From a virus: a stretch of 64,000 nucleotides of DNA. The stretch covers positions 37,597 through 101,596 of the IMG/VR virus record IMGVR_UViG_3300042868_010125. One strand, written 5' to 3'. This document shows positions 20,977 through 43,555 of this stretch, piece after piece. Under the pieces are notes generated by a model. It saw only the letters and a list, made by a program, of their open reading frames with translations, was not told where the DNA came from and did no database searches. A program made the position numbers and the translations under genes. The first letter of the stretch is position 1; the number at the start of each line of letters is the position of its first letter.

Positions 20977-23277
<2,301 letters not shown>

Positions 23278-23293
23278 AAGGAGCTGTTAAAAA

Positions 23294-25483
<2,190 letters not shown>

Positions 25484-25576
25484 TTTAATAAGAATTTAGA
25501 GTTTAATTTTATTTTAATCACCTTTTTTATTTAGGGTAAAATTGGCTTTGGGAATCATCCCACTCGAGTGAAATGA

Positions 25577-27724
<2,148 letters not shown>

Positions 27725-27740
27725 CCTAAATATTAGGTAG

Positions 27741-27778
27741 AAACTGCCCATCTTTTCACGAAGGTGGGCAGTTTTTTT
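27741..27778 (+). terminator. Intrinsic terminator
   Basis: AAACTGCCCATCTT-loop-AAGGTGGGCAGTTT hairpin followed by a T run. Confidence 0.85.
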
Positions 27779-27840
27779 ATATAGAAAGTTCAAATTTGTA
27801 GTATAGTAGTGCCATCCTTTTGCTGAAGTAAGAGAGTAAT

Positions 27841-29133
<1,293 letters not shown>

Positions 29134-29158: not shown

Positions 29159-29539
29159 ATGGCAGCAGCACCAAATTTTGCCGCGACTGTTCGCGTCTCG
29201 GCAGCTAATATTGCAACAGCCGACACTTCGCGTACCTCACCTACCAACGTAGGTACCGTGTTCACCGCAGGAGCAAGCGGCTCACGCATCGACGAGATCA
29301 ACATCGTCTCGACGGGAACTACAACCGCGGGAGTAGTACGTCTATGGGTATACACTGGTTCAACATACTATTTACTTCAAGAAGTTATGGTGACTGCTGT
29401 TACTCCATCTACTACTCAAGCTGTGTTTTCATCCACATCTACCTATAATAATTTTATGTTACCTTCTGGGCATTCACTTAGAGCAACAACTAATAATTCA
29501 GAATCTTTTAACGTTATAGCTTTTGGTGGAGACTTTTAA
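29159..29539 (+). CDS. Small beta-rich putative virion protein
   Basis: VFTAGASGSRIDEI..VRLW..LPSGHSLRA..FNVIAFGGDF; SD AAAGGA. Confidence 0.6.
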   Translation: MAAAPNFAATVRVSAANIATADTSRTSPTNVGTVFTAGASGSRIDEINIVSTGTTTAGVVRLWVYTGSTYYLLQEVMVTAVTPSTTQAVFSSTSTYNNFMLPSGHSLRATTNNSESFNVIAFGGDF

Positions 29540-29558: not shown

Positions 29559-32500
29559 ATGAATTATGGTAGGGAAGATGGATTTAATAATAACACCGAA
29601 ATAGTTAACGGTGAGTATAACCCTACAACTTTACAGAATGAAAGACAAGGTTATTTACGCTTTTTTCTTAAAGGATTTGAACCCGAGGATTTTTCATTGT
29701 CTTCTGTTGATGAGTCATATACTTTTAGTAAAAGATCAAGTAAGTCTTCTGTAGCAACAGGCCAGCTTTGGGCTAGAGAAACAATAAGTAAGACTCAAGT
29801 ACTATCTTCTGTTACATATGGAAACGGAGTGTGGGTAGCTGGTGGGGGACAAGGAAGTTTATTCATATCAACTAACGGTGGGACAGTATGGAATGTTCCA
29901 TCATCTTATACTTCTACCGCTAATAACATTAATACACTTTCATATGGAAATGGCGTTTTTGTAGCGGCAGGTGCTTCTGGATTCTTTAGAGTATCAACTG
30001 TAGAGACTACATGGAGTGCAATTGGAACTAATACTTCTTCAGGTATTCATGCAGTCGCGTATGGAAATGGTGTGTGGGTAGCGACAGGTGTACTTGGAAT
30101 ACTGTTACGCTCAGATAATTTATACACATGGAGTCAACCAACTACTTCAAATACAAGTACTTTAAACTCTATTTTTTACGGTAATGGTATCTGGGTTGCA
30201 GGAGGTAATAGTGGAGCAGTAAGAACATCTACTGATAGTGGTGTGACGTGGAGAGGATACGGATCTAACTTTGGCACAACTGCCATAACTTCAATTGCAT
30301 ACGGAAACGGCACGTGGGTCGCGGTGGGTGCAAGTGGAACGTTAAGAACGTCTACTGATGCACTAACATGGAACACGCAAACTTCACAGTTTGGTTCAAC
30401 TACTATTTTCTCGGTTGCATATGGAAATGGAATTTTTGCTGCGGTAGGAAGCGCAGGAACGTTAAGAACGTCTACTGATGCAATAAACTGGAACACGCAA
30501 ACGTCACAGTTTGGTTCAACTTTAATTCAATCCATTGCATATGGAAATGGAATTTTTGCTGCGGTAGGAAGCGCAGGAACGTTAAGAACGTCTACTGATG
30601 CACTAACATGGAACACGCAAACTTCACAGTTTGGTGCAACTGCTATTGCAGCCGTTGCGTACGGCAACGGTGTCTGGGTTGCAGGAGGAAGCGCAGGAAC
30701 GTTAAGAACGTCTACTGATGCAATAAACTGGAACACGCAAACGTCACAGTTTGGTTCAAGCGGTATCATTTCAATTGCGTATGGTAATGGAATTTTTGTT
30801 GCGGCGGGAGACGGAGGTACAATTTCATCATCAACTAACCCAGGCGTAGTGTGGGTTTCATCTAACTCTTTTTCTACAACTACTTTTACATCTATTACGT
30901 ATGGAAATGGAACTTTTGCTGTGCTAGGAGGCTCCGCTCCATCTATGCGCACATCTACAAACGCTGTTACCTGGGTTTCAACGATGCCTCCGATAAAACT
31001 TTCAGGTTCAAGTGGTTTACAATCAATTGCATATGGAAATGGACTGTGGGTTGTAGGTGGAACTTCAGGTGTTATGGCTATATCAACTGGAAATCTTGTA
31101 AAATGGAAAGAACTTGGTTCTGGCTCATCTACTATTCATTCAGTTGCGTATGGAAATGGCGTGTGGATAGCAGGGTACAGTGCCGGAGCTCTGCGGACCT
31201 CAACAGATAGTGCACAAAACTGGAATTTAGTTGGAGTAGATAGAACAGGTATATGTAGTATTGCATATGGAAATGGAGTTTGGCTAGTTTCACATGCAGG
31301 CACAGGTGATAGACAATACGTTATATCAACAGACAACGGTGCTACTTGGACTGATACGCAAAGTGCTGGATTAAATGGGCAGCAAGCTATTCAATTAAGT
31401 TTTGGTAATGGAACTTTTGTTGCTGCAATTACGGGTGGAGTGATACAAGCGTCAACTGATGATGGTACTACTTGGAGAAATAACGGAACCATAGACTTAG
31501 GCTCGTCTGCAGCTTTATCCGCTGTTGCATACGGTAGCGGCACGTGGGTAGCTGGAACTTCAAGTGCCTTAATATCGTCAAGTGATTCAATTTACTGGCA
31601 AAGAAGACATAATCCAAGTGGAGTAACATATTCTGCCTTTGGAAACAGCGTCTGGGTGGCAACTTCAGGAACTTCAATAAGAACCTCTGTTGATGGAATT
31701 TCATGGACACTGCAGACCTCTAACTTTGGTTCAAGTACTATATGTGCGGTTGCGTATGGGAATGGCACGTGGACAGCGGTAGGCGCAGGTGGAACACTGC
31801 GGACCTCAACGGATAACGGTGTGATCTGGAATACACAAACTTCACAGTTTGGAACAACTGGAATCAACGCTATTGCATATGGAAACGGCACTTGGGTAGC
31901 TGGAGGACAAGCAGGAACGTTAAGAACTTCAACAAACGGCGGTGTGACCTGGAACACGCAGACGTCAACGTTTGGAACCAGTGCGATTAGCTCGGTTGCA
32001 TATGGAAATGGTGTCTTTATAGCAGGAGGAGCAGGAGGAGCGATAAGAACTTCACCTGATGGTGTTACGTGGACCACGCGTACTTCTAATACTACAACTG
32101 CAATCCAGTCAGTCGCGTACGGCAACGGCACGTGGGCAGCTGGAGGAAATGGAGGAATGATAAGAACATCAACGGATAACGGTGTGACGTGGACAACACA
32201 GACTGGTTTTGGTACAAGTGTGATTAGCTCTATCGGATATGGTAACGGTTTATTCGTAGCTGCTGGACCTAGTGGTATGATGAGAACGTCAACGGATAAC
32301 GGTGTGACGTGGTATCAATATGGACCTAACTTTGGCACATCAGCTGTCCAGTCAGTCGCGTACGGCAACGGTGTCTGGGTAGCTGGAGGTGCGAGTGGAA
32401 CGTTAAGAACTTCAACTGACGCGCTTAACTGGAATACGCAAACGTCACAATTTGGTTCAAGTGGGATTAGCTCGGTTGCATATGGAAATGGAATTTTTGT

Positions 32501-34067
32501 TGCGGTGGGTATAGGTGGAGCGATAAGAACTTCACCTGATGGTGTTACGTGGACCACGCGTACTTCTAATACTACAAGTAGTTTGGATAAAGTTGCCTAT
32601 GGTAATAACACATGGGTAGCAGGAGGATTTACCAGTGGTGGAACTAACAGCATAAGAACATCAACGGATAACGGTGTTACGTGGACTACGCAGGCATCTA
32701 ACTACGGTGCTAACAATATTAACTCTTTACTTTATGGTAATGGAATATTTTTTCTTGCTGCGTCTAGTGGAAATTATAGAACTTCTACTGATGGACTAAC
32801 ATGGGTTACCAGAACATCTCCATTAGGTAGTAGCACCATAACAGCATCTGCTTATGGAAATGGTATATTTATAATTTCTGCTAACTTTGCAACGCGAATT
32901 TCAAGTAACGCTATAGACTGGTACACTCATGGTTCAAATTTTTCTTCTTCTCCTAGTACATGCGTTGTATCTTATGGTAATGGAATATTTTTAGCTGGTA
33001 ACAGCTCTGGTCAACTTTTTTCTTCTACTGACTCAATTTTTTGGACCACACGAACTTCTAACTTTGGATCAAGTGGAATTAGTGCTGTTGCGTATGCAAA
33101 CGGAACGTGGGTCTTGGGAGGCGCGGGGGGAACGCTGCGGACCTCAACTGATAATGCGATAACATGGAATACGCAAACTTCACAGTTTGGTGGAGCTGTA
33201 ATCCAGTCAATTACTTATAGTAATGGAATTTGGGTTGCTGGAGGTGCGAGTGGAACGTTAAGAACTTCAACTGACGCGCTTAACTGGAATACGCAAACTT
33301 CACAGTTTGGAACCAGTGCGATTAGCTCGGTTGCATATGGAAATGGAATTTTTGCTGCAGCAGGTGCGGGTGGAGCGTTAAGAACATCTACTGATGCACT
33401 CAATTGGTATGCTTATGGAATTCAATTTGGATCTTCTACTATTCAGTCTTCTGCCTACGGCAATGGAGTGTACGTAGCAGCTGGTGATGGTGGAACTTTA
33501 AAAACTTCAACTGATCTAATAGTCTGGACGCAACAAACATCACAGTTTGGATCTAGTATAATTCGCTCTGTTGCATATGGTAACGGCACGTGGACAGCGG
33601 TAGGCGCAGGTGGAACACTGCGGACCTCAACGAATAACGGTGTGACGTGGAATACGCAGACGTCAACGTTTGGAACCAGTGATATTCGCTCTATTGCATA
33701 TGGAAATGGCGTGTGGATAGCAGGAGGAGATACATTTGGTACAATTAGTATTTCAAGTGATGCAGTTAATTGGACAACTAGAGAATCAGGATTTAAAAAT
33801 GGTAAAGTTCAATCAGTTGCCTATGGAGATGGCTTATGGACAATTGTAAGTAGTGCTGAGCCTGTCAATAAGATAAGAACATCAACGGATAACGGTGTGA
33901 CATGGAATACACAACATTATACTGGCTCAAGCAGCTTTAACGCAGTTGCCTATGGAAATAATACATGGGTAGCACTTACTCAAGGGCACTTGTACAGATC
34001 TGACTTATTAGTGGGCTATAATCAACCTATAGACCCAAATCTATCTATTGTTGGATGGACACAATGA
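29559..34067 (+). CDS. YGNG/Asp-box repeat beta-propeller protein, 35 blades (putative adhesin)
   Basis: About 39-40 aa repeat I.SVAYGNG.WVA.G..GTLRTSTD...WNTQTSQFG, counted by hand 35 times. Confidence 0.85.
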   Translation: MNYGREDGFNNNTEIVNGEYNPTTLQNERQGYLRFFLKGFEPEDFSLSSVDESYTFSKRSSKSSVATGQLWARETISKTQVLSSVTYGNGVWVAGGGQGSLFISTNGGTVWNVPSSYTSTANNINTLSYGNGVFVAAGASGFFRVSTVETTWSAIGTNTSSGIHAVAYGNGVWVATGVLGILLRSDNLYTWSQPTTSNTSTLNSIFYGNGIWVAGGNSGAVRTSTDSGVTWRGYGSNFGTTAITSIAYGNGTWVAVGASGTLRTSTDALTWNTQTSQFGSTTIFSVAYGNGIFAAVGSAGTLRTSTDAINWNTQTSQFGSTLIQSIAYGNGIFAAVGSAGTLRTSTDALTWNTQTSQFGATAIAAVAYGNGVWVAGGSAGTLRTSTDAINWNTQTSQFGSSGIISIAYGNGIFVAAGDGGTISSSTNPGVVWVSSNSFSTTTFTSITYGNGTFAVLGGSAPSMRTSTNAVTWVSTMPPIKLSGSSGLQSIAYGNGLWVVGGTSGVMAISTGNLVKWKELGSGSSTIHSVAYGNGVWIAGYSAGALRTSTDSAQNWNLVGVDRTGICSIAYGNGVWLVSHAGTGDRQYVISTDNGATWTDTQSAGLNGQQAIQLSFGNGTFVAAITGGVIQASTDDGTTWRNNGTIDLGSSAALSAVAYGSGTWVAGTSSALISSSDSIYWQRRHNPSGVTYSAFGNSVWVATSGTSIRTSVDGISWTLQTSNFGSSTICAVAYGNGTWTAVGAGGTLRTSTDNGVIWNTQTSQFGTTGINAIAYGNGTWVAGGQAGTLRTSTNGGVTWNTQTSTFGTSAISSVAYGNGVFIAGGAGGAIRTSPDGVTWTTRTSNTTTAIQSVAYGNGTWAAGGNGGMIRTSTDNGVTWTTQTGFGTSVISSIGYGNGLFVAAGPSGMMRTSTDNGVTWYQYGPNFGTSAVQSVAYGNGVWVAGGASGTLRTSTDALNWNTQTSQFGSSGISSVAYGNGIFVAVGIGGAIRTSPDGVTWTTRTSNTTSSLDKVAYGNNTWVAGGFTSGGTNSIRTSTDNGVTWTTQASNYGANNINSLLYGNGIFFLAASSGNYRTSTDGLTWVTRTSPLGSSTITASAYGNGIFIISANFATRISSNAIDWYTHGSNFSSSPSTCVVSYGNGIFLAGNSSGQLFSSTDSIFWTTRTSNFGSSGISAVAYANGTWVLGGAGGTLRTSTDNAITWNTQTSQFGGAVIQSITYSNGIWVAGGASGTLRTSTDALNWNTQTSQFGTSAISSVAYGNGIFAAAGAGGALRTSTDALNWYAYGIQFGSSTIQSSAYGNGVYVAAGDGGTLKTSTDLIVWTQQTSQFGSSIIRSVAYGNGTWTAVGAGGTLRTSTNNGVTWNTQTSTFGTSDIRSIAYGNGVWIAGGDTFGTISISSDAVNWTTRESGFKNGKVQSVAYGDGLWTIVSSAEPVNKIRTSTDNGVTWNTQHYTGSSSFNAVAYGNNTWVALTQGHLYRSDLLVGYNQPIDPNLSIVGWTQ

Positions 34068-35128
34068 ATAAAAATATAAGAAAAAACTACTATGATACAG
34101 GTGAAATAGTATTTGGTATTGACTCACCAGGAAGTTCATGGGTAAAACTTGATGGAAGCGTAGTTAAAGTTGATAGTAATTTTTCTAATAAACTTTCTAA
34201 TTCTTCTTTAGCAAATTTAAAATTTTTAAATGATGGAAGTGGACTAAATATATGTGCGGTTGCGTACGGCAACGGTGTCTGGGTAGCTGGAGGTGCATCA
34301 GGAGTACTGCGTACGTCAACAGATGAACTTAACTGGAATACGCAAACTTCACAGTTTGGTTCAAGTACTATTTTTTCAATTGCTTATGGAAATGGAACTT
34401 TCGTTGCTGTAGGCGCGGGTACAGCTTTAAGAACATCAGAAAATGGTATTACATGGACTACGCGAACTTCTACATTTTTTACAGCCATATGTGCTGTTGC
34501 GTATGGTAATGGCGCGTGGATTGCTGTCGGTAGTTCAGCAAGTGTAAGAACATCAACGGATAACGGTGTGACGTGGACAACACAGACATCTAATTACAGC
34601 GCAACTATATGCTCTGTTGCCTACGGAAACGGCACGTGGGTTTTTGGAGGTGTAGGTGGAGGATTACGTACCTCAACTGATAACGGTGTGACGTGGAACA
34701 CGCAAACAACTTTAAACTATTTAGTAACAGGAATTTCTAAAATAGCGTATGGAAATGGAATTTGGGCAGTAGCTTCAATTAACGCAGATGATACTATACA
34801 AACTTCTACTAACCTTATAAACTGGTCTATCCCAAAAACGTATACATCAGGACAAATAGCCAGTTATGCTTTAACATACGCAGATAATAAGTGGTTATTA
34901 GGAGGAATAAACAGTCAAGGAATTATGATTTCTACGGATGCACTTAACTGGAATACGCAGATATCATTAAATAATATAAATTCGATAGTTTACGATGCAG
35001 CTTATGGTAATAATGCATGGGTTGTAGTTGGACTGGGCGTAATTGCAACAACAAAAATATTAACTACTTTTAAAACACCTAATACATATCTCGGTAATGG
35101 TGTATATGGATGGATGAAAATAAAATGA
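34064..35128 (+). CDS. YGNG-repeat beta-propeller protein, 7 blades, inside a tail-collar-like frame
   Basis: 7 repeats; N-terminal TGEIVF..PGSSWVKLDGS, C-terminal FKTP..GWMKIK; ATGA overlap start. Confidence 0.8.
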   Translation: MNKNIRKNYYDTGEIVFGIDSPGSSWVKLDGSVVKVDSNFSNKLSNSSLANLKFLNDGSGLNICAVAYGNGVWVAGGASGVLRTSTDELNWNTQTSQFGSSTIFSIAYGNGTFVAVGAGTALRTSENGITWTTRTSTFFTAICAVAYGNGAWIAVGSSASVRTSTDNGVTWTTQTSNYSATICSVAYGNGTWVFGGVGGGLRTSTDNGVTWNTQTTLNYLVTGISKIAYGNGIWAVASINADDTIQTSTNLINWSIPKTYTSGQIASYALTYADNKWLLGGINSQGIMISTDALNWNTQISLNNINSIVYDAAYGNNAWVVVGLGVIATTKILTTFKTPNTYLGNGVYGWMKIK

Positions 35129-37926
35129 ATAATCAAGATTCTAAAAAAGAAGTAGTGTACAAGACTGGTAGTGTTATATATAGAAAAAGTTCATTAGGTT
35201 CACCAGGACCAGGCTGGTTAAATTTAAGTACTACTCAAACTATTAACTCAAATTCTAGACTTGGTAAAATAATTCCTTATTACTCTACTTGGTCTTCAGT
35301 TAATCATACTATTGGCTTAAGTATTATTAATTCTGTTGCTTATGGTAATGGGACATATATAGCAGCAGGTGCAGGAGGAGCGCTAAGGACCTCAACGGAT
35401 AACGGTGTGACGTGGAATACGCAAACTTCACAGTTCGGTGCAAATGGAATTTGTTCTGCTGCATATGGTAATGGAGCTTGGCTTTTGGTGGGAGACGGAG
35501 GAAATGCAAAAACATCACTAGATAATGCGGTAAACTGGATTAATTACGGAGTTAATTTTGGTTCAAGTACTATTTTTTCAACTGCCTATGGTAATGGAAT
35601 TTATGTTGCGGTAGGCGCAGGAGGAGCGCTAAGGACCTCAACGGATAACGGTGTGACGTGGAATACGCAAACTTCACAGTTCGGTGGAACTTCAATTTCT
35701 TCAGTTGCCTATGGTAATGGAGTTTTTGTAGTGGGAGGAGACTCGGCGGTATTAAGAACGTCTACTGATGCAATAAACTGGAACACGCAAACGTCACAGT
35801 TTGGAACAACTGGAATTCGTGCTATCACGTATGGAAACGGCACGTGGGTAGCTGGAGGACAAGCAGGAACGTTAAGAACTTCAACAAACATAACTGTTTG
35901 GAACGCTCATGGAAATCAGTTTGGTGCAACTGCCATATCTGCGGTTGCGTACGGCAACGGTGTCTGGGTAGCTGGAGGTGCGAGTGGAACGTTAAGAACT
36001 TCAACTGACGCGCTTAACTGGAATACGCAGACGTCACAATTTGGTTCAAGTATTATTTATGCAGTCGCGTATGGAAATGGAGTATGGGTTGTAGGAGGCG
36101 CAGGGGGAACGCTGCGGACCTCAACTGACACGCTTAACTGGAATACGCAAACTTCACAGTTTGGAACTAGTATAATTAGTGCAATTGCGTATGGCAACGG
36201 CACGTGGGTAGCGGTGGGTGCGGGTGGAGCGTTAAGAAATTCAACGAATAACGGTGTGACGTGGAATACGCAGACGTCAACGTTTGGAACCAGTGATATT
36301 CGCTCTGTTGCATATGGTAATGGTGTCTTTGTAGTGGGAGGAGCAGGAGGAGCGATAAGAACTTCAACGAATAACGGTGTTACGTGGACCACGCGTACTT
36401 CTAATACTACAAGTAGTTTAAACGCCGTTTCTTATGGTAATGGTGTCTTTATAGCGACAGGAGCAGGAGGAGCGATAAGAACTTCACCTGATGGTGTTAC
36501 GTGGACCACGCGTACTTCTAATACTACAAGTAGTTTAAACGCCGTTTCTTATGGTAATGGTGTGTGGACTGCAGCGTCTTTTTCTGGAGGACTACGGACC
36601 TCAACTGATAACGGTGTAACATGGAATACTCAGACTCCTAACTTTGGTACAAGTGATATTCTTGGTGTTGCGTACGGAAATGGAACTTGGTTACTTGGAG
36701 GAAGTGGTGGAACTACAAGAACATCAACTAACAATGCTATAACTTGGATAGGATACGGTACTAATTTTGGAAGTACTCTTACTATCGATGCAGTTGGGTA
36801 TGGAGGTGGTGTGTGGGTAGCGACAGGATTTGCAGGAACACTGCGGACCTCAACTGACACGCTTAACTGGAATACGCAAACTTCAGAGTTTGGCGGTTCA
36901 AGTGGAATTAGTGCTGTTGCGTATGGTAACGGCACGTGGGTTGCGGGAGGAAGCGCAGGAACGTTAAGAACTTCAACAAACGGCGGTGTGACCTGGAACA
37001 CGCAAACGTCACAGTTTGGAACAAGTTCGATCGTAGCCGTTGCGTATGCAAACGGAACGTGGGTCTTGGGAGGCGCGGGGGGAACGCTGCGGACCTCAAC
37101 TGACACTATAAACTGGAATACACAAACTTCAGAGTTTGGAACAAGTGGGATTAACTCGGTTGCATATGGAAATGGAATTTTTGTTGCGGCAGGTGCGAGT
37201 GGAAAACTGCGCTCCTCAACTGACACTATAAACTGGAGATCTTATGGACCTAACTTTGGCACATCAGCTGTCCAGTCAGTCGCGTATGGAAATGGAGTAT
37301 GGGTTGCTGTAGGAATACAAGGTATGCTGCACTCCTCGACTGACGCGCTTAACTGGAATACGCAGACGTCACAATTTGGTTCAAGTACTATATGTGCAGT
37401 TGCTTATGGAAATGGAACTTTCATTGCGGTGGGTGCTAGTGGAACGTTAAGAACTTCAACTGACGCGCTTAACTGGAATACGCAAACTTCACAGTTTGGA
37501 ACCAGTGCGATTAGCTCGGTTGCATATGGAAATGGTGTGTGGGCCGCAGGAGGTGCAGGAGGAGCGCTAAGGACCTCAACGGATAACGGTGTGACGTGGA
37601 ACACGCAAAACTCTAACATTCCTATAACGTTAGGTATTTCTTCAATAGCCTACGGAGATGGAATATTTATTTTGGTAAGCTTAAATGGAGGAGTAAGAAC
37701 GTCTTTAGATGGAATAAACTGGACAACACAGGTATACTCGTACGCAGGCGCGGACACACTTGAGCCTGTTTCTAGGGTAGCGTATGGGAATAACTCTTGG
37801 ATTATCGCAGGAGGATCAAACCAGTCACTTTACATGGCTAAAAACAGCAAATCTATCCCTAAAACTTACCATGTACTTACTCCTATAGAGGCTCCAGTAG
37901 GATACACTCCTTGGATTAAAACCTAA
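35125..37926 (+). CDS. YGNG-repeat beta-propeller protein, 21 blades, inside a tail-collar-like frame
   Basis: 21 repeats; N-terminal TGSVIY..PGPGWL, C-terminal GYTPWIKT; ATGA overlap start. Confidence 0.85.
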   Translation: MNNQDSKKEVVYKTGSVIYRKSSLGSPGPGWLNLSTTQTINSNSRLGKIIPYYSTWSSVNHTIGLSIINSVAYGNGTYIAAGAGGALRTSTDNGVTWNTQTSQFGANGICSAAYGNGAWLLVGDGGNAKTSLDNAVNWINYGVNFGSSTIFSTAYGNGIYVAVGAGGALRTSTDNGVTWNTQTSQFGGTSISSVAYGNGVFVVGGDSAVLRTSTDAINWNTQTSQFGTTGIRAITYGNGTWVAGGQAGTLRTSTNITVWNAHGNQFGATAISAVAYGNGVWVAGGASGTLRTSTDALNWNTQTSQFGSSIIYAVAYGNGVWVVGGAGGTLRTSTDTLNWNTQTSQFGTSIISAIAYGNGTWVAVGAGGALRNSTNNGVTWNTQTSTFGTSDIRSVAYGNGVFVVGGAGGAIRTSTNNGVTWTTRTSNTTSSLNAVSYGNGVFIATGAGGAIRTSPDGVTWTTRTSNTTSSLNAVSYGNGVWTAASFSGGLRTSTDNGVTWNTQTPNFGTSDILGVAYGNGTWLLGGSGGTTRTSTNNAITWIGYGTNFGSTLTIDAVGYGGGVWVATGFAGTLRTSTDTLNWNTQTSEFGGSSGISAVAYGNGTWVAGGSAGTLRTSTNGGVTWNTQTSQFGTSSIVAVAYANGTWVLGGAGGTLRTSTDTINWNTQTSEFGTSGINSVAYGNGIFVAAGASGKLRSSTDTINWRSYGPNFGTSAVQSVAYGNGVWVAVGIQGMLHSSTDALNWNTQTSQFGSSTICAVAYGNGTFIAVGASGTLRTSTDALNWNTQTSQFGTSAISSVAYGNGVWAAGGAGGALRTSTDNGVTWNTQNSNIPITLGISSIAYGDGIFILVSLNGGVRTSLDGINWTTQVYSYAGADTLEPVSRVAYGNNSWIIAGGSNQSLYMAKNSKSIPKTYHVLTPIEAPVGYTPWIKT

Positions 37927-37965: not shown

Positions 37966-38721
37966 ATGCTAAAATTGGACACTATACGTAGTACAACTTT
38001 GTTTGTCGCGACACCGTGCTACGGTGGACTAGTAAATGAAAAATACGTACAGTCCTTACTTCAACTAGTTTCTAAGTCAGCACAGTATGGAATGAAGTTA
38101 GGATACTTTACACGCTCTAATGAAAGTTTAATCACAAGAGCAAGAAATGATCTTGTTTTTACTTTTCTACAAACTCCAGCAACCCACCTAATGTTTATTG
38201 ATGCTGATATAAACTTTAATCCAGACGATGTATTTAAGATGATTAGCATGAATAAAGACGTTATTACTGGAGCGTATCCTACAAAAATGATAGATTGGCA
38301 AAAAATGGCTAGCTCTGCGTCAAATGATGTTAAAACGCTACAGTCTAATGCAATTCGCTATTCTTCAGGTGTAAATAAGTTAACTAGTACTTCTAGCACA
38401 ACTGAAAATGGATTATTAGAAATATATGATGGTGCTACTGGTTTTATGCTTATTAAAAGACCAGTTATAGAAAAACTTATAAAAAGTTATCCTGAAACAC
38501 GCTATATTCCAGAGGTTTATGATGAAGAGTCTCAGAAAGGAATGTCAAAATACGCTATTTTTGATACCATGATTGATAATGGAAGGTATCTCAGCGAGGA
38601 CTACACGTTTTGTCGTCGTTGGCAAAATATTGGTGGAAAAGTATACGTTGACCCAACAATAGTCTTAGACCATGTAGGAACTTACACTTTTAAAGGTGGA
38701 AATATATCGGAGGATAACTAA
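37966..38721 (+). CDS. GT-A fold glycosyltransferase
   Basis: ATPCYGG, ESLITRARN, FIDAD (DxD), TGFMLI, LSEDY.FC..W, LDHVG. Confidence 0.8.
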   Translation: MLKLDTIRSTTLFVATPCYGGLVNEKYVQSLLQLVSKSAQYGMKLGYFTRSNESLITRARNDLVFTFLQTPATHLMFIDADINFNPDDVFKMISMNKDVITGAYPTKMIDWQKMASSASNDVKTLQSNAIRYSSGVNKLTSTSSTTENGLLEIYDGATGFMLIKRPVIEKLIKSYPETRYIPEVYDEESQKGMSKYAIFDTMIDNGRYLSEDYTFCRRWQNIGGKVYVDPTIVLDHVGTYTFKGGNISEDN

Positions 38722-38725
38722 ATTT

Positions 38726-39403
38726 ATGGACACACAAATACCTCATTTTAATGTACTTATAGCCACACCTGGGCACTCAATGCAACAAGCTTATGTGCGT
38801 AGTCTTGCAAAAACTATTTACTTTTTTGATCAAAACCAAATTACTTGGAATTTTTTAACTGAGTACTCATCTTTAGTTGCTGACGCAAGAGAGAAAACTA
38901 TCGGAGGACTAGGGTATCAAGATCCTAATGACTCTCGTCCAGGCCATGGATTATATAGTTACGATCGAATACTTTGGATCGACTCCGACATCGAGTGGGA
39001 ACCAGAGGACGTACATAAGTTACTTAGTAATGACGTTGAAGTTGTTTCTGGCTGTTACATGCTTGCAAATGAAGAAGTGACAGTGTACCCAAAGGTTTTA
39101 CGTGGAGGGATGACAAAAGAAGAAATAATGTCAAGAAAAAAACCTTTTGCTGTAAGAGGAGTTGGTTTTGGATTTTTAGCTGTAAAACAAGGTATATTTG
39201 AAAAAATAAAGCGTCCTTGGTTTTCACAAACGGAAGTAGAAGTAATAAATGAAGAAACTGGTGCTGTAGAGTATAAATTTCCTTTAATGGGAGAAGATCT
39301 TTCCTGGTGTGAAAAAGTTCACAGGATGGGAGTTACTATATGGGTAGATCCACTTGTTAGAGTAAATCATCACAAGCAAGTTAAAATTGAGTGGCCAAAG
39401 TAG
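38726..39403 (+). CDS. GT-A fold glycosyltransferase
   Basis: IATPG, WIDSD, GFGF..VK.G.FE..RPWF, GEDLSWC, VNHHK; start at ATG38726. Confidence 0.8.
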   Translation: MDTQIPHFNVLIATPGHSMQQAYVRSLAKTIYFFDQNQITWNFLTEYSSLVADAREKTIGGLGYQDPNDSRPGHGLYSYDRILWIDSDIEWEPEDVHKLLSNDVEVVSGCYMLANEEVTVYPKVLRGGMTKEEIMSRKKPFAVRGVGFGFLAVKQGIFEKIKRPWFSQTEVEVINEETGAVEYKFPLMGEDLSWCEKVHRMGVTIWVDPLVRVNHHKQVKIEWPK

Positions 39404-39457
39404 CACTAAAGTTATTTTAAGTAAATAATAAATACTAAAGTTTAGAGAGGAAACTAG

Positions 39458-40378
39458 ATGATTGACCCTAAAGGTGGAGAAGATATTATGCTAGAAAACC
39501 TAGCAAAATATGTTGATCTTGATAAGTATAATGTAAACATCATTAATTCTAAGTGTTATAGAGATTTAGTTGATATGGATAAGCGCAATATCTTATGGCA
39601 GCATATCCCCGCGAATCAAAGTGTTGTTCAAGGAATTAAAGATAAATATTTTAATAGATTAATAGATGCATATGTGTATGTCTCACACTGGCAGCATGAA
39701 AAATTTCGTTATATTCATCAAATTCATCTAGAAAATGCGTATGTAGTTAGAAATGCAATAGAATCAATTAGTTATGTAGAAAAGCCAAAAGAAAAAATAA
39801 AACTTATATATACTTCTATGCCATATCGTGGTTTAGATGTTTTACTTGACTCTTTTGAGCTTTTAAACAGAGATGATATAGAATTAGATATTTATTCTTC
39901 TACTCAGATATATGGCCAAGAATATGTAGAGTATGAAGGTAATAAATATGAGCAACTTTTTGATCGCGCTCGCAGTATGAAAAATGTTAACTATATCGGA
40001 TATGCTCCACATAAAGATGTTATCTTAGCTCTTCAAAAAGCTCATATCTTTGCTTATCCTTGTATTTTTGAAGAGACAGCCTGTCTTTCCATGATAGAAG
40101 CAGGCGCAGCTGGATGTAACTTAGTTACAACAAACATTGGAGGATTACCAGAAACAGGTTCTATATATGCAAAGCTAGTTCCAATTCAAGCAGATGCCAA
40201 AATTCTTATTGCAAATTACGCCAAGGCACTAGAAGAGACTATAAATAATTATTGGTCACTTGAAAATCAAGAATTTATTAAAGAGCAATCTGATTTTTTT
40301 AATAAACACTATAGCTGGGAAACTAGAAAATATGAGTGGATTAAGATATTAGAATCTCTTCCAGATCAGGTTAAATAA
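39458..40378 (+). CDS. GT-B (GT4-like) glycosyltransferase
   Basis: YTSMPYRGL, AYPCIFEETACLSMIEA..AG (EX7E), GGLPET. Confidence 0.85.
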   Translation: MIDPKGGEDIMLENLAKYVDLDKYNVNIINSKCYRDLVDMDKRNILWQHIPANQSVVQGIKDKYFNRLIDAYVYVSHWQHEKFRYIHQIHLENAYVVRNAIESISYVEKPKEKIKLIYTSMPYRGLDVLLDSFELLNRDDIELDIYSSTQIYGQEYVEYEGNKYEQLFDRARSMKNVNYIGYAPHKDVILALQKAHIFAYPCIFEETACLSMIEAGAAGCNLVTTNIGGLPETGSIYAKLVPIQADAKILIANYAKALEETINNYWSLENQEFIKEQSDFFNKHYSWETRKYEWIKILESLPDQVK

Positions 40379-40896
40379 TGCCTTCTTCACACCCAGAAAA
40401 TAAAAGTTGGCTGCTTAAGAAAATTAAGCAGATTAAACCTAAAAATATTTTAGACGTTGGTGCTGGAGAAGGAACTTATGGAGAATTTATAAAATCATTT
40501 ATAAATTCTAACATTGTTATTGATGCAATAGAAGTTTGGCAACCATATATAGATCATTTTAATTTAAAATCAATATATGATAATGTTTATCAAAAAGACG
40601 TAAGAGTATACGATAATTTTGATTATGATATAGTAATTTTTGGTGATGTTTTAGAGCACATGTCAGCAAATGATGCTATTCAACTTTGGAATAGATGTTC
40701 TAAACAAGCAAAGTACGCGATAATATCTATACCTATAACTCATATGCCACAAGGGGCTTTCAATAATAATCCATATGAGATTCATGTGGAAGAAGACTGG
40801 AACTCTGAGCTAGTCTTAGAAAAGTTTCATAGTATTATTGACTATAAACTTTTTCAATTTACAGGAGCATTTATCGCAAAGTTTACTGGTAATTAG
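40378..40896 (+). CDS. Class I SAM-dependent methyltransferase
   Basis: ILDVGAGEG, GDVLEHM. Confidence 0.85.
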   Translation: MPSSHPENKSWLLKKIKQIKPKNILDVGAGEGTYGEFIKSFINSNIVIDAIEVWQPYIDHFNLKSIYDNVYQKDVRVYDNFDYDIVIFGDVLEHMSANDAIQLWNRCSKQAKYAIISIPITHMPQGAFNNNPYEIHVEEDWNSELVLEKFHSIIDYKLFQFTGAFIAKFTGN

Positions 40897-40931
40897 TTCT
40901 ATGTTATTAACTAATAGTTTAGGTAAAATAC

Positions 40932-41615
40932 ATGAAAAAACACATTAATGTTCTTATTGCAACTCCAGGAAGATCAATGGAGGCAGAGTATGTAAAAAGT
41001 TTAATTTCAACAATAACTTATCTTAAAGACGTTGGAATTAGCTATTTATTTTTAAATGAGTACTCTTCTGCTGTAAGTACTGCTAGAGAAGCTACAGCAA
41101 TGGGTTCTAAATTTTTAGACGCATTTAATCAATCTCCAGTTAGAGGAGAAGTTACATATGATAAATTCTTTTGGATAGATTCTGATATATCTTGGACTAT
41201 AGCTGATTTTATGAATATGTATAGTTCAGATAAAGATATAGTTTCAGGAATATATATAGATCAATTTGGTACTCCTATGTTTGCAATAGACACTCCTGCA
41301 GGACAAGAAATTTCTGCTTATAAAATTATTACAGAACAAGAATATCGTGAGATATCATCTGCTGGATTTGGGTTTATTTGTGTAAAACAAGGTGTTTTTG
41401 AAAATATAAAAAGACCTTGGTTTGAGACTCATTTTTCAAAAATACATGGTAGTAACGGAGAAGAGTTTTTAGTCCCACTTGCTGAAGATTTTTCTTGGTG
41501 CAGAAAGGCTCAAGAAGCTGGATATAAAATATTTTTAGATCCTAGAGTTCAAGTTGCTCATCATAAGAAAGTAATGATATTCCCAAAAGATCTTATACGC
41601 AATCCAGAATTATAG
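40932..41615 (+). CDS. GT-A fold glycosyltransferase, paralog of 38726
   Basis: NVLIATPG, EYSS, WIDSD, GFGF.CVKQGVFE.IKRPWF, AEDFSWC. Confidence 0.8.
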   Translation: MKKHINVLIATPGRSMEAEYVKSLISTITYLKDVGISYLFLNEYSSAVSTAREATAMGSKFLDAFNQSPVRGEVTYDKFFWIDSDISWTIADFMNMYSSDKDIVSGIYIDQFGTPMFAIDTPAGQEISAYKIITEQEYREISSAGFGFICVKQGVFENIKRPWFETHFSKIHGSNGEEFLVPLAEDFSWCRKAQEAGYKIFLDPRVQVAHHKKVMIFPKDLIRNPEL

Positions 41616-41648
41616 ACATTTATAAATTTATCATGATAAATTAGGCTT

Positions 41649-42689
41649 ATGATTAAAGTTGCCGCATACGCTATTGCCCTGAACGAGGAGAAGCACGCTC
41701 AGCGTTGGGCAGACACCACTAAAGATGCAGACTTTAGATTAGTCTGTGACACAGGCTCTACAGATAAAACAGTAGAGATATTAAGAAGCAATGGGATTAT
41801 TGTCTATGAAATAAGTGTAAAGCCTTGGAGATTTGATGTTGCAAGAAATACTGCTCAGAGTTTATTACCAGCAGATATAGATGTGTGTCTAAGTTTAGAT
41901 TTAGATGAAACAGTAGATAAAGACTTTTTTAAAAAAGTAAAAGAGCACTGGGCGCCAGGGGCTAACAAAGGTTGGTGTGATTTTGACACTGGTCATACTT
42001 GGCTAGGTGCTCGCTTGCACGCTAGAGATGGTGTGTATTGGAAATATCCTATTCATGAAGTATTTGTTCCTTCCCTTGATACACCTTTGATGAGTTGCAC
42101 TATTCCTACCAAGATGTACCACAAACCAGATAATACAAAATCTCGCGGGCAATATATGACAATGTTAATTGCTGCAAGTAAAGAGTTTGGTGAAGACCAT
42201 CGAATTTGGGTATATCTGTGTCGTGAATATTACTATTACAAGATGTGGGATTTAGTAATTAGTAGCGCTCAAAAAGTTAGTGATTTTAGTAAAGACTGGT
42301 TCGTGGAACGTGCAGCAGTATGTAGATTTGCATCTGAAGCATGCAGAAATTTAGGAAGACTTGAAGAAGCACACACGTGGGCAGATAAAGCAATTTCTAT
42401 CGACCCATGCGGTGAGGCGTATTATGAAAAAGTACGTTGCTACTATGAACAAAGTGATTGGGGTGGGGTGTGGGAAACTTGCAAACTAGTTGCTACATGC
42501 CAACCAACTAATCACTACCTATCATCTGAAGCTCTATGGAATTGGATGCTAGATGATATGAGAGCGCTATCTGCTCATTACCTAGGTGATAAAGCAAAGG
42601 CAGTAGAGTATGGAGAAAAAGCACTTATAGGAAATCCAACGGATGCCAGATTAATAAATAATATGGTTTTTTATAAGCAAGGTATCTAA
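41649..42689 (+). CDS. GT2 glycosyltransferase with C-terminal TPR-like repeats
   Basis: AIALNEE, DTGSTD, WRFDVARN, SLDLDE, PIHE; helical TPR-like C-terminus. Confidence 0.85.
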   Translation: MIKVAAYAIALNEEKHAQRWADTTKDADFRLVCDTGSTDKTVEILRSNGIIVYEISVKPWRFDVARNTAQSLLPADIDVCLSLDLDETVDKDFFKKVKEHWAPGANKGWCDFDTGHTWLGARLHARDGVYWKYPIHEVFVPSLDTPLMSCTIPTKMYHKPDNTKSRGQYMTMLIAASKEFGEDHRIWVYLCREYYYYKMWDLVISSAQKVSDFSKDWFVERAAVCRFASEACRNLGRLEEAHTWADKAISIDPCGEAYYEKVRCYYEQSDWGGVWETCKLVATCQPTNHYLSSEALWNWMLDDMRALSAHYLGDKAKAVEYGEKALIGNPTDARLINNMVFYKQGI

Positions 42690-43555
42690 TGACTCAGCCA
42701 AATGTATTTTTAGCCCTTCTTGTAAAACAAAAAGAAGCCGTTCTTCCATTATTTCTAGAAAGTCTCAACAACTGGGACTACCCTAAAGAAAACATATTTA
42801 TCTACATCAGAACTAATAACAACACAGATAACACAAAAGGGCTTTTAGAAGAGTGGATAGAAGAGTACGGTGATAAATATAAAGGGCTAATCTACAACAG
42901 CGAAGATGTTCCACAAAAAGTAGAGCAGTACGATGTTCATTTCTGGAATGGTGAAAGGTTTAGAGTCTTAGGAAAAATTCGTCAAGAGAGTATGAACCAA
43001 GCCTTACTCACAGATTGTGAATACTACTTTGTAGTAGATATAGATAACTTTTTGTTCCCAGAAACACTCAAAGAATTAGTCAAACTAGACCTACCTATAG
43101 TTGCCCCATTTTTAAGATACGCGGTTGCTTTCGGTGAAAATGCTGATACTCCTGTAGAGGCTGCTAAGCGAGAAGGTCACATGAGTATGTATTACTCAAA
43201 CTATCATGACAAGGTAGATGACTTTGGTTCAATTATTGCAGAAGATGTTTACTACAAAATTTTAAATCAAGAGGTAAAAGGACTAATTGAGTGCATGTGC
43301 GTTCACTGCACCTACCTAATTAAAAGAGAGCATCTCTCTGAACTTACTTACCTAGAGGAGTCAGACCGCTGGGAGTACATGGTTTTTTCTAACTCTGCCA
43401 GAGACAAAGGGATACCTCAGTACATAGACAATAGAACTATATATGGCGTACTCACATTAAGTGAAAATCTTGGGGCCTCTAGATGGTGGTTTAACTATCT
43501 AAAAGATGAAAAAAATAGAACAGAAAAATATAAATCTATTATTAATTTTAGTTAA
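42689..43555 (+). CDS. GT-A glycosyltransferase resembling COLGALT/PLOD-type GT domains
   Basis: PNVFLALL..DYPKE..IRTNNNTDNT..EW, YYFVVDIDNFL..PETL..PIVAPFL, YSNY, VHCTYLI. Confidence 0.7.
   Translation: MTQPNVFLALLVKQKEAVLPLFLESLNNWDYPKENIFIYIRTNNNTDNTKGLLEEWIEEYGDKYKGLIYNSEDVPQKVEQYDVHFWNGERFRVLGKIRQESMNQALLTDCEYYFVVDIDNFLFPETLKELVKLDLPIVAPFLRYAVAFGENADTPVEAAKREGHMSMYYSNYHDKVDDFGSIIAEDVYYKILNQEVKGLIECMCVHCTYLIKREHLSELTYLEESDRWEYMVFSNSARDKGIPQYIDNRTIYGVLTLSENLGASRWWFNYLKDEKNRTEKYKSIINFS

Follow-up and report, generated by a model that had tools for sequence, protein, structure and literature searches.

Continuous Asp-box (BNR) beta-propeller arrays that form more than one seven-bladed ring are known from the GH74 xyloglucanases and OXG-RCBH ('type 3'; Quistgaard & Thirup 2009, PMC2716378), in which two successive rings each have their own 1+3 Velcro closure and the Asp-box is missing from blade 7 of each ring. 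The Asp-box is the hairpin that joins strand 3 of a blade to strand 4; in the known Asp-box propellers the ring is closed by a 1+3 Velcro, the last blade has no Asp-box, and an n-bladed ring never has n Asp-boxes (PMC2716378). In the Vibrio cholerae sialidase ('type 2', PMC2716378) the Asp-box ring is formed from discontinuous sequence, with one lectin domain inserted between blades. Recently amplified propeller arrays reach up to 47 near-identical blades; their partition into rings cannot be read from the sequence, they are poorly modelled by AlphaFold, and no internal punctuation has been reported for them (Pereira & Lupas 2022, PMC9218822). Here we analysed three adjacent genes encoding Asp-box arrays in a 64,000-nucleotide (nt) window (positions 37,597 to 101,596) of a 101.6-kb phage record in IMG/VR (IMGVR_UViG_3300042868_010125). 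Like the GH74 enzymes, the two larger proteins have continuous blades that may form more than one seven-bladed ring; unlike in GH74, the hairpin is present in 20/21 and 32-34/35 of their blades with only the last blade lacking it, three and five rings are proposed, and there is no sign of a glycosidase. In contrast to the recently amplified arrays, they contain a discrete class of linkers that gives a unique parse. Outside this superfamily, DDB1, CPSF160 and SF3B3 carry three seven-bladed WD40-like rings in one chain in a defined mutual arrangement, formed mostly sequentially; we know of no marker linker in these proteins.

The three propeller genes are the following:

29559..34067, plus strand: gene of a 1502 amino acid (aa) protein, an N-terminal region of ~80 aa followed by 35 Asp-box blades (open reading frame (ORF), translation, motif and hidden Markov model (HMM); Pfam DUF6242, 57 bits)
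34055..35128, plus strand: gene of a 357-aa protein, 7 Asp-box blades (ORF, translation, motif)
35110..37926, plus strand: gene of a 938-aa protein, an N-terminal region of ~73 aa followed by 21 Asp-box blades (ORF, motif and HMM; DUF6242, 42.8 bits)

The blade unit of ~40 aa follows the consensus x-x-V-A-Y-G-N-G-x-W-V-A-x-G-x-x-G-x-L-R-T-S-T-D-x-x-x-W-N-T-Q-T-S-x-F-G-x-x-x-I. Counting with a motif anchor, [YF][GAS][NSDG][GNS]x[WFY], and with an HMM built from the blades gave the same 35, 7 and 21 repeats, 36-45 aa apart, and agreed with the hand counts of a first-pass annotation of this DNA. The pattern S-x-[DN]-x(2-5)-W was found in 32/35, 6/7 and 20/21 blades. The proteins thus show the repeated S-x-D-x-G-x-T-W hairpin and the ~40-aa blades of the Asp-box (BNR) beta-propeller superfamily. 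Pfam BNR scored 25.4 bits (cut-off 27) and DUF6242 57 and 43 bits (cut-off 29), and an orthologue, P0124, was above threshold for Pfam BNR and BNR_2. A family alignment built on the 938-aa protein matched the structures of Ycf48 (PDB 2xbg, 5ojp; E 2.6e-7 to 5.6e-7). These Ycf48/HCF136-like propellers, the closest solved relatives by profile, form one seven-bladed Asp-box ring, as the 357-aa protein probably does, and public annotation of relatives uses the Ycf48 name. Ycf48 helps to assemble photosystem II in cyanobacteria and plastids, whereas the phage proteins belong to a fibre module and have near-identical blades; on phage homologues the name is an annotation carry-over.

Since the Asp-box (S-T-D-x-x-x-W) joins strands 3 and 4, the following W-N-T-Q-T corresponds to the outer strand of the blade. 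Four residues after the Asp-box tryptophan (W+4), 36 of 61 blades carry threonine, 12 glycine and 13 another residue. All twelve glycines sit in the 35- and 21-blade proteins and none in the 7-blade protein. A scan of W+4 confirmed the W-x-x-x-G strands listed in the first-pass annotation and found no others in the three genes; four of them were also hit by a scan with a linker pattern:

30012..30026, plus strand: WSAIG, after blade 2 of the 35-blade protein (W+4 scan)
30249..30263, plus strand: WRGYG, after blade 4 of the 35-blade protein (W+4 scan and linker pattern scan)
31104..31118, plus strand: WKELG, after blade 11 of the 35-blade protein (W+4 scan)
31221..31235, plus strand: WNLVG, after blade 12 of the 35-blade protein (W+4 scan)
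31473..31487, plus strand: WRNNG, after blade 14 of the 35-blade protein (W+4 scan)
32310..32324, plus strand: WYQYG, after blade 21 of the 35-blade protein (W+4 scan and linker pattern scan)
32919..32933, plus strand: WYTHG, after blade 26 of the 35-blade protein (W+4 scan)
33405..33419, plus strand: WYAYG, after blade 30 of the 35-blade protein (W+4 scan)
35536..35550, plus strand: WINYG, after blade 2 of the 21-blade protein (W+4 scan and linker pattern scan)
35899..35913, plus strand: WNAHG, after blade 5 of the 21-blade protein (W+4 scan)
36745..36759, plus strand: WIGYG, after blade 12 of the 21-blade protein (W+4 scan)
37234..37248, plus strand: WRSYG, after blade 16 of the 21-blade protein (W+4 scan and linker pattern scan)

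These marks divide the 35-blade protein into segments of 2|2|7|1|2|7|5|4|5 blades and the 21-blade protein into 2|3|7|4|5, which had been read by hand as nested sets of seven. We submitted both strings to a parser whose grammar defines a ring as seven blades and requires a child ring to be flanked by marks on both sides, and also tried ring sizes from 3 to 11. Both large proteins gave a valid nested parse at ring size 7 and at no other size. Mathematically, such a parse is a non-crossing pairing of marks at equal phase modulo 7; the pairs, named by the preceding blade, are (2,16) and (5,12) in the 21-blade protein and (2,30), (4,11), (12,26) and (14,21) in the 35-blade protein. The chance rate of this placement, a check that the first-pass annotation had proposed, was obtained by exact counting: with mark number fixed, 51/4845 placements of four marks (0.0105) and 5481/18,156,204 placements of eight marks (3.0e-4) are valid, which gives a joint chance of 3.2e-6 given the mark counts and of 1.1e-7 with mark number free. 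The mark pattern is real and goes beyond chance. At the marks the linkers are of normal length and retain the downstream N-F-G. The closest relative of a mark is not its partner in the nested parse, an argument against simple copying.

A second line of evidence comes from the chain ends, where four elements are of interest:

29769..29783, plus strand: WARET, a strand-4-like element just before blade 1 of the 35-blade protein, the putative Velcro strand for blade 35 (sequence)
33939..34064, plus strand: blade 35, the sole blade of the 35-blade protein without the Asp-box tryptophan hairpin (Asp-box scan)
35290..35304, plus strand: WSSVN, a strand-4-like element before blade 1 of the 21-blade protein, the putative Velcro strand for blade 21 (orthologue alignment, W61 invariant)
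37771..37923, plus strand: blade 21 and the C-terminal tail (…GYTPWIKT), the sole Asp-box-less blade of the 21-blade protein (Asp-box scan; tail kept in orthologues)

In each of the three proteins the Asp-box tryptophan is missing only from the last blade, and a W-strand precedes blade 1. The 7-blade orthologues of the two downstream genes in related phages have a canonical W-N-T-Q-T-S-x-F-G before blade 1, followed by a linker of normal length. One Asp-box-less blade per protein together with an N-terminal W-strand points to one N/C Velcro, not three or five, which would place the first blade beside the last in the same ring. This differs from GH74-type tandem rings, with one Asp-box-less closing blade for each ring: here there is one per protein, for three and five proposed rings. 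The N-terminal 70 aa and the C-terminal ...W-I-K-T of the 938-aa protein recur in its orthologues, which have 7 blades at three loci or 4 on one short contig, so the 14 extra blades of the 938-aa protein would lie inside the ancestral ring. The 4-blade orthologue (L002:375-1106, IMGVR_UViG_3300032241_001110), which keeps both termini, could assemble as an oligomeric propeller, or its repeat may have collapsed. Matching individual blades with those of the 7-blade orthologues gave no insertion point, because blades are homogenised within each protein. Taken at sequence level, the Velcro and orthologue evidence fits the outermost level of a nested tree, and rings made of blades 1-7, 8-14 and 15-21 are hard to reconcile with the termini unless there is an unmarked crossing at the N-terminus.

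The reading that we put forward, with a probability of about 0.4, is that the large proteins fold as nested seven-bladed rings, described by the trees A(B(C)) for the 21-blade and A(B(C, D(E))) for the 35-blade protein, with ring size and membership deduced from the marks and blade counts. The three arrays of Asp-box (BNR / Ycf48-like) blades would then fold into five, one and three seven-bladed rings, in which the first two and last five blades of each large protein close one ring by the N-terminal-strand Velcro and complete rings are inserted between blades; the rings predicted for the 938-aa protein are {1,2,17-21}, {3-5,13-16} and {6-12}. At an insertion the chain would exit from the outer strand of one ring, enter the inner strand of the facing blade in the neighbouring ring, and return likewise. 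The outer strands at the 2(n-1) crossings would be those in which W-x-x-[Y/H/x]-G replaces W-N-T-Q-T: the W+4 glycine may let the chain turn outward, not inward, at unchanged linker length, and the aromatic residue at W+3 is a plausible junction contact. By our own geometric reasoning, neighbouring rings would lie next to each other, axes parallel and like faces up; child blades 1 and 7 would then stand opposite parent blades a and a+1, respectively. The distance from rim to centre into the neighbour would be about that within the own ring, and a normal 8-residue linker would therefore suffice if the chain turns outward. Two covalent tethers at each ring-ring junction would make a stiff flat array, suited to multivalent glycan binding on the host surface. 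With the same reserve we propose that one chain can be a branched propeller tree, grown by recursive insertion (depth 4, with one ring having two children) and governed by a one-residue glycine switch. The principle is that of the V. cholerae sialidase described above; there the insert is a single lectin domain, whereas the proposed phage inserts are whole propellers of the same kind, recursive and branched. A search for nested, inserted or discontinuous propellers gave no relevant description in the literature library that was searched.

Several results weigh against nesting, starting with the marks themselves, whose statistics come from two proteins of one phage, with a criterion picked post hoc. 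The blade numbers come from one short-read metagenome assembly; in Logan contigs from four lake-water runs the unique pieces were identical, without differences, and none of the contigs spans the repeats. In the 35-blade protein the two child rings of ring B, set 51° apart, would be crowded. Structure prediction gave other rings. We modelled the whole 938-aa protein with AlphaFold2 from a 40-row MAFFT alignment (predicted local distance difference test (pLDDT) 79, predicted template modelling score (pTM) 0.48; blade 2 and the N-terminal strand disordered). Instead of the expected ring of blades 6-12, the only readable ring was formed by blades 3-9, with pLDDT above 90; in VIA-align, 7-bladed WD40 proteins superposed on model residues about 100/151-422 (Z 32, root-mean-square deviation (rmsd) 2.3 Å, ~272 residues aligned). 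The alignment was 36-38 rows deep on blades 3-8, 5.6 on blade 2 and 9-12 on blades 11-13. This ring is weak evidence, because it tracks where MAFFT stacked the 7- and 14-blade homologues, and as a test of topology we rejected it as an alignment-depth artefact. For the 1502-aa protein we modelled blades 13-26 (segments 2|7|5) from a family-only alignment, with the fragment ends kept off the marks. Here too the predicted rings did not appear: at pLDDT 73.5, blades 17-26 formed one loose, low-confidence 10-blade-like ring, best resembling the 9- and 10-bladed designs Cake9/Cake10 (Z 18, rmsd 5.4 Å). AlphaFold is unreliable on long near-identical blade arrays (PMC9218822), and the fragment result agrees with this. 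Both models appear uninformative and neither confirm nor refute nesting.

The homologues are the other source of contrary results. More than 2600 relatives were found at E<=1e-10, the best only 36-45% identical; many homologues are listed with PF25852. Blade totals in the clade are 7, 7, 7, 21, 28 (L001), 35 and 42 (P0124), and the lengths of 168 contiguous homologous arrays of at least 10 blades peak sharply at 14 (49/168), which supports seven-bladed rings. Close relatives keep the expected multiples of seven; the expected 2(n-1) marks do not recur. None of the 168 arrays gave a valid nested parse, and 119/168 are without any W+4 glycine. The syntenic 28-blade orthologue of the 35-blade gene (L001) has no marks, and the 42-blade P0124 has them only after blades 3 and 11. 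A back-translated linker motif, W-x-x-Y-G-x-N-F-G-x7-A-Y-G-N-G, matched four sites in the window and was absent from IMG/VR and Joint Genome Institute (JGI) metagenome contigs outside this record, and a protein search seeded with one marked linker revealed no relative bearing the mark. The W-x-x-x-G rule is thus at best private to this phage, or else the relatives rely on different linkers or a different topology. A distant homologue, P0139 (2476 aa, JGI metagenome), has sporadic W-Y-T-Y-G, W-Y-S-L-G, W-K-Q-H-G and W-L-R-Y-G outer strands, two of them separated by exactly 14 regular blades, so that variants of this kind may mark ring junctions outside this phage too, at lower density. In the 28-blade array (L001:5800-9519, IMGVR_UViG_3300032236_001270), short Asp-box-less blades occur at positions 1, 10 and 19 and long linkers after 9 and 18, a 9-blade sequence period inside a 4x7 total. 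Of the propeller trees claimed in the first-pass annotation, what stands is the non-random, non-crossing pairing, the single closing blade and the 7-blade orthologues, while the structure and homologue checks did not give the predicted result.

The marks may instead be contact points, which we hold to be rather unlikely. The rings would then consist of consecutive blades in some frame, and each W-x-x-Y-G outer (fourth) strand would meet the corresponding blade of an adjacent ring about a local two-fold axis, the glycine permitting close approach and the aromatic residue packing into the interface. With n rings in a tree there are n-1 contacts and hence 2(n-1) marks at equal phase modulo 7, which reproduces count and pairing exactly. 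Count and phase are thus equally expected from contacts, and non-crossing alone discriminates. Contacts also accommodate marked linkers of normal length with their N-F-G kept, and the sporadic W-x-x-[YLH]-G strands of distant homologues, including the two 14 blades apart in P0139; consecutive rings are moreover the only documented arrangement of continuous Asp-box arrays (GH74 'type 3', PMC2716378). When we simulated random contact trees with random blade indices on consecutive rings, however, the pairing was non-crossing in 50% of cases for three rings and in 6.1% for five, ~3% jointly, so that non-crossing favours nesting roughly 33-fold under this simple contact model. If the rings were 1-7, 8-14 and so on, the N-terminal W-strand would also fall into a different ring from the last blade, which lacks its strand, so that an unmarked crossing would still be needed; in the 35-blade protein, moreover, ring 2 would have to contact three partners, on blades 4, 5 and 7.

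That the marks have no topological meaning is improbable in our judgement. They could have spread by block duplication or gene conversion in arrays of 7n blades, or be a post-hoc coincidence, with the rings perhaps consecutive. Blades are indeed mosaics with 60-84% DNA identity and evolve in concert within proteins. A perfect 71-nt duplicate (36376-36446 / 36493-36563) lies in blades 9 and 10 of the 21-blade gene, and a 44-nt identical tract (32319-32362 / 37243-37286) is shared by the marked linkers of blade 21 in the 35-blade and blade 16 in the 21-blade gene; both look like signs of ongoing gene conversion among blades. The homologues without the rule and the 9-blade period of the 28-blade orthologue, unrelated to 7, point the same way. 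Yet copying of 7-blade units would give look-alike paired marks, and the pairs do not resemble each other; two non-crossing marks per phase class in both proteins would require several ad hoc losses, and the chance of such a pattern is 1e-7 to 3e-6.

It is very improbable that the rings are not all seven-bladed, being 9- or 10-bladed or open solenoid-like stacks, or that the blade numbers are an assembly artefact: for this speak the 10-blade-like AlphaFold2 ring of blades 17-26 (Z 18, rmsd 5.4 Å), the known ten-bladed Asp-box propellers (sortilin; PMC2716378), the irregular short or long blades every 9 in the 28-blade orthologue, the 4-blade orthologue on its short contig, the absence in four independent runs of a contig spanning the repeats, and the unreliability of AlphaFold models of long repetitive arrays (PMC9218822), and against it the clade totals of 7, 7, 7, 21, 28, 35 and 42, the array peak at 14 (49/168), size 7 alone giving a parse, the one well-formed modelled 7-blade ring with pLDDT above 90, and blades that differ enough in DNA for assembly. 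A variant in which the marked strand pairs with the third strand of the partner blade was rejected, since marked blades keep intact Asp-box motifs.

The large terminase of the phage is 76% identical to its counterpart in Actinomycetia phage DSL-LC01, a lake metagenome-assembled genome, and at least 11 lake-water runs contain at least half of the window's sampled words. In the window, the propeller genes are preceded on their 5' side by a primase, an exonuclease and four collagen-repeat genes with PHROG tail-fibre matches (20977-29133). They stand directly 3' of these collagen-like fibre genes, an order that is syntenic in related phages; their own products matched phrog_8700 alone, of unknown function. 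The collagen gene at 27841-29133 has a PHROG tail-collar match at its N-terminus. Between it and the 35-blade gene, a 126-aa ORF (29159-29539) had neither a Pfam nor a PHROG match. The N-termini of the 7- and 21-blade proteins (34055-34250 and 35110-35290) have G-x-[IV]-[IV]-[FY]-x(5-8)-S-P-G-x-G-W-[LIV]-x-L in common, which we take to resemble the core motif of phage tail-collar domains. The true start of the 357-aa gene is likely the ATG at 34064, overlapping the upstream stop, because orthologues begin with MNKN. The three propeller genes overlap, in ATGA fashion if the middle gene begins at 34064 and by 19 nt at the third gene (35110-35128); the two 7-blade genes in L001 overlap by 16 nt. 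Such overlaps suggest translational coupling.

Directly 3' of the propeller genes, a run of genes (37966-43555) gave weak-to-clear Pfam matches to Anp1-like, GT2, GT1 and class I methyltransferase families; these enzymes could glycosylate the Ser/Thr-rich fibre and propeller proteins. DSL-LC01 itself has a single 290-aa propeller gene after collagen-like genes (L016:8479-9351, OQ999401.1), whose annotation reads 'photosynthesis system II assembly factor'; its place among the fibre genes points to a role in structure or adhesion and to a name carried over from Ycf48. The three genes of the window are best explained as part of the fibre module in an uncultured lake relative of phage DSL-LC01. 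Their products are probably glycan-binding virion appendages; for the label 'adhesin' we infer a role from gene neighbourhood alone.

How an array of many near-identical blades divides into rings is a practical problem still to be solved, and Pereira & Lupas could not model a 47-blade array. The discrete linker class of the phage proteins offers one testable way, and only one, to partition 21 and 35 blades. Should the marks be contact points, they would reveal ring-ring interfaces from sequence alone. If nesting is true, these proteins would be the first propeller-in-propeller tree and would show an amplifying repeat growing inside a Velcro-closed ring, adding new domains without breaking the old one. 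Nesting would also supply a design rule, in which two tethers per ring junction lead to stiff planar arrays, and a natural, sequence-readable grammar for rigid two-dimensional propeller arrays. For the phage, an abundant one in lakes, the genes mean very large multivalent Asp-box appendages, encoded beside collagen-like fibres and a glycosylation island.

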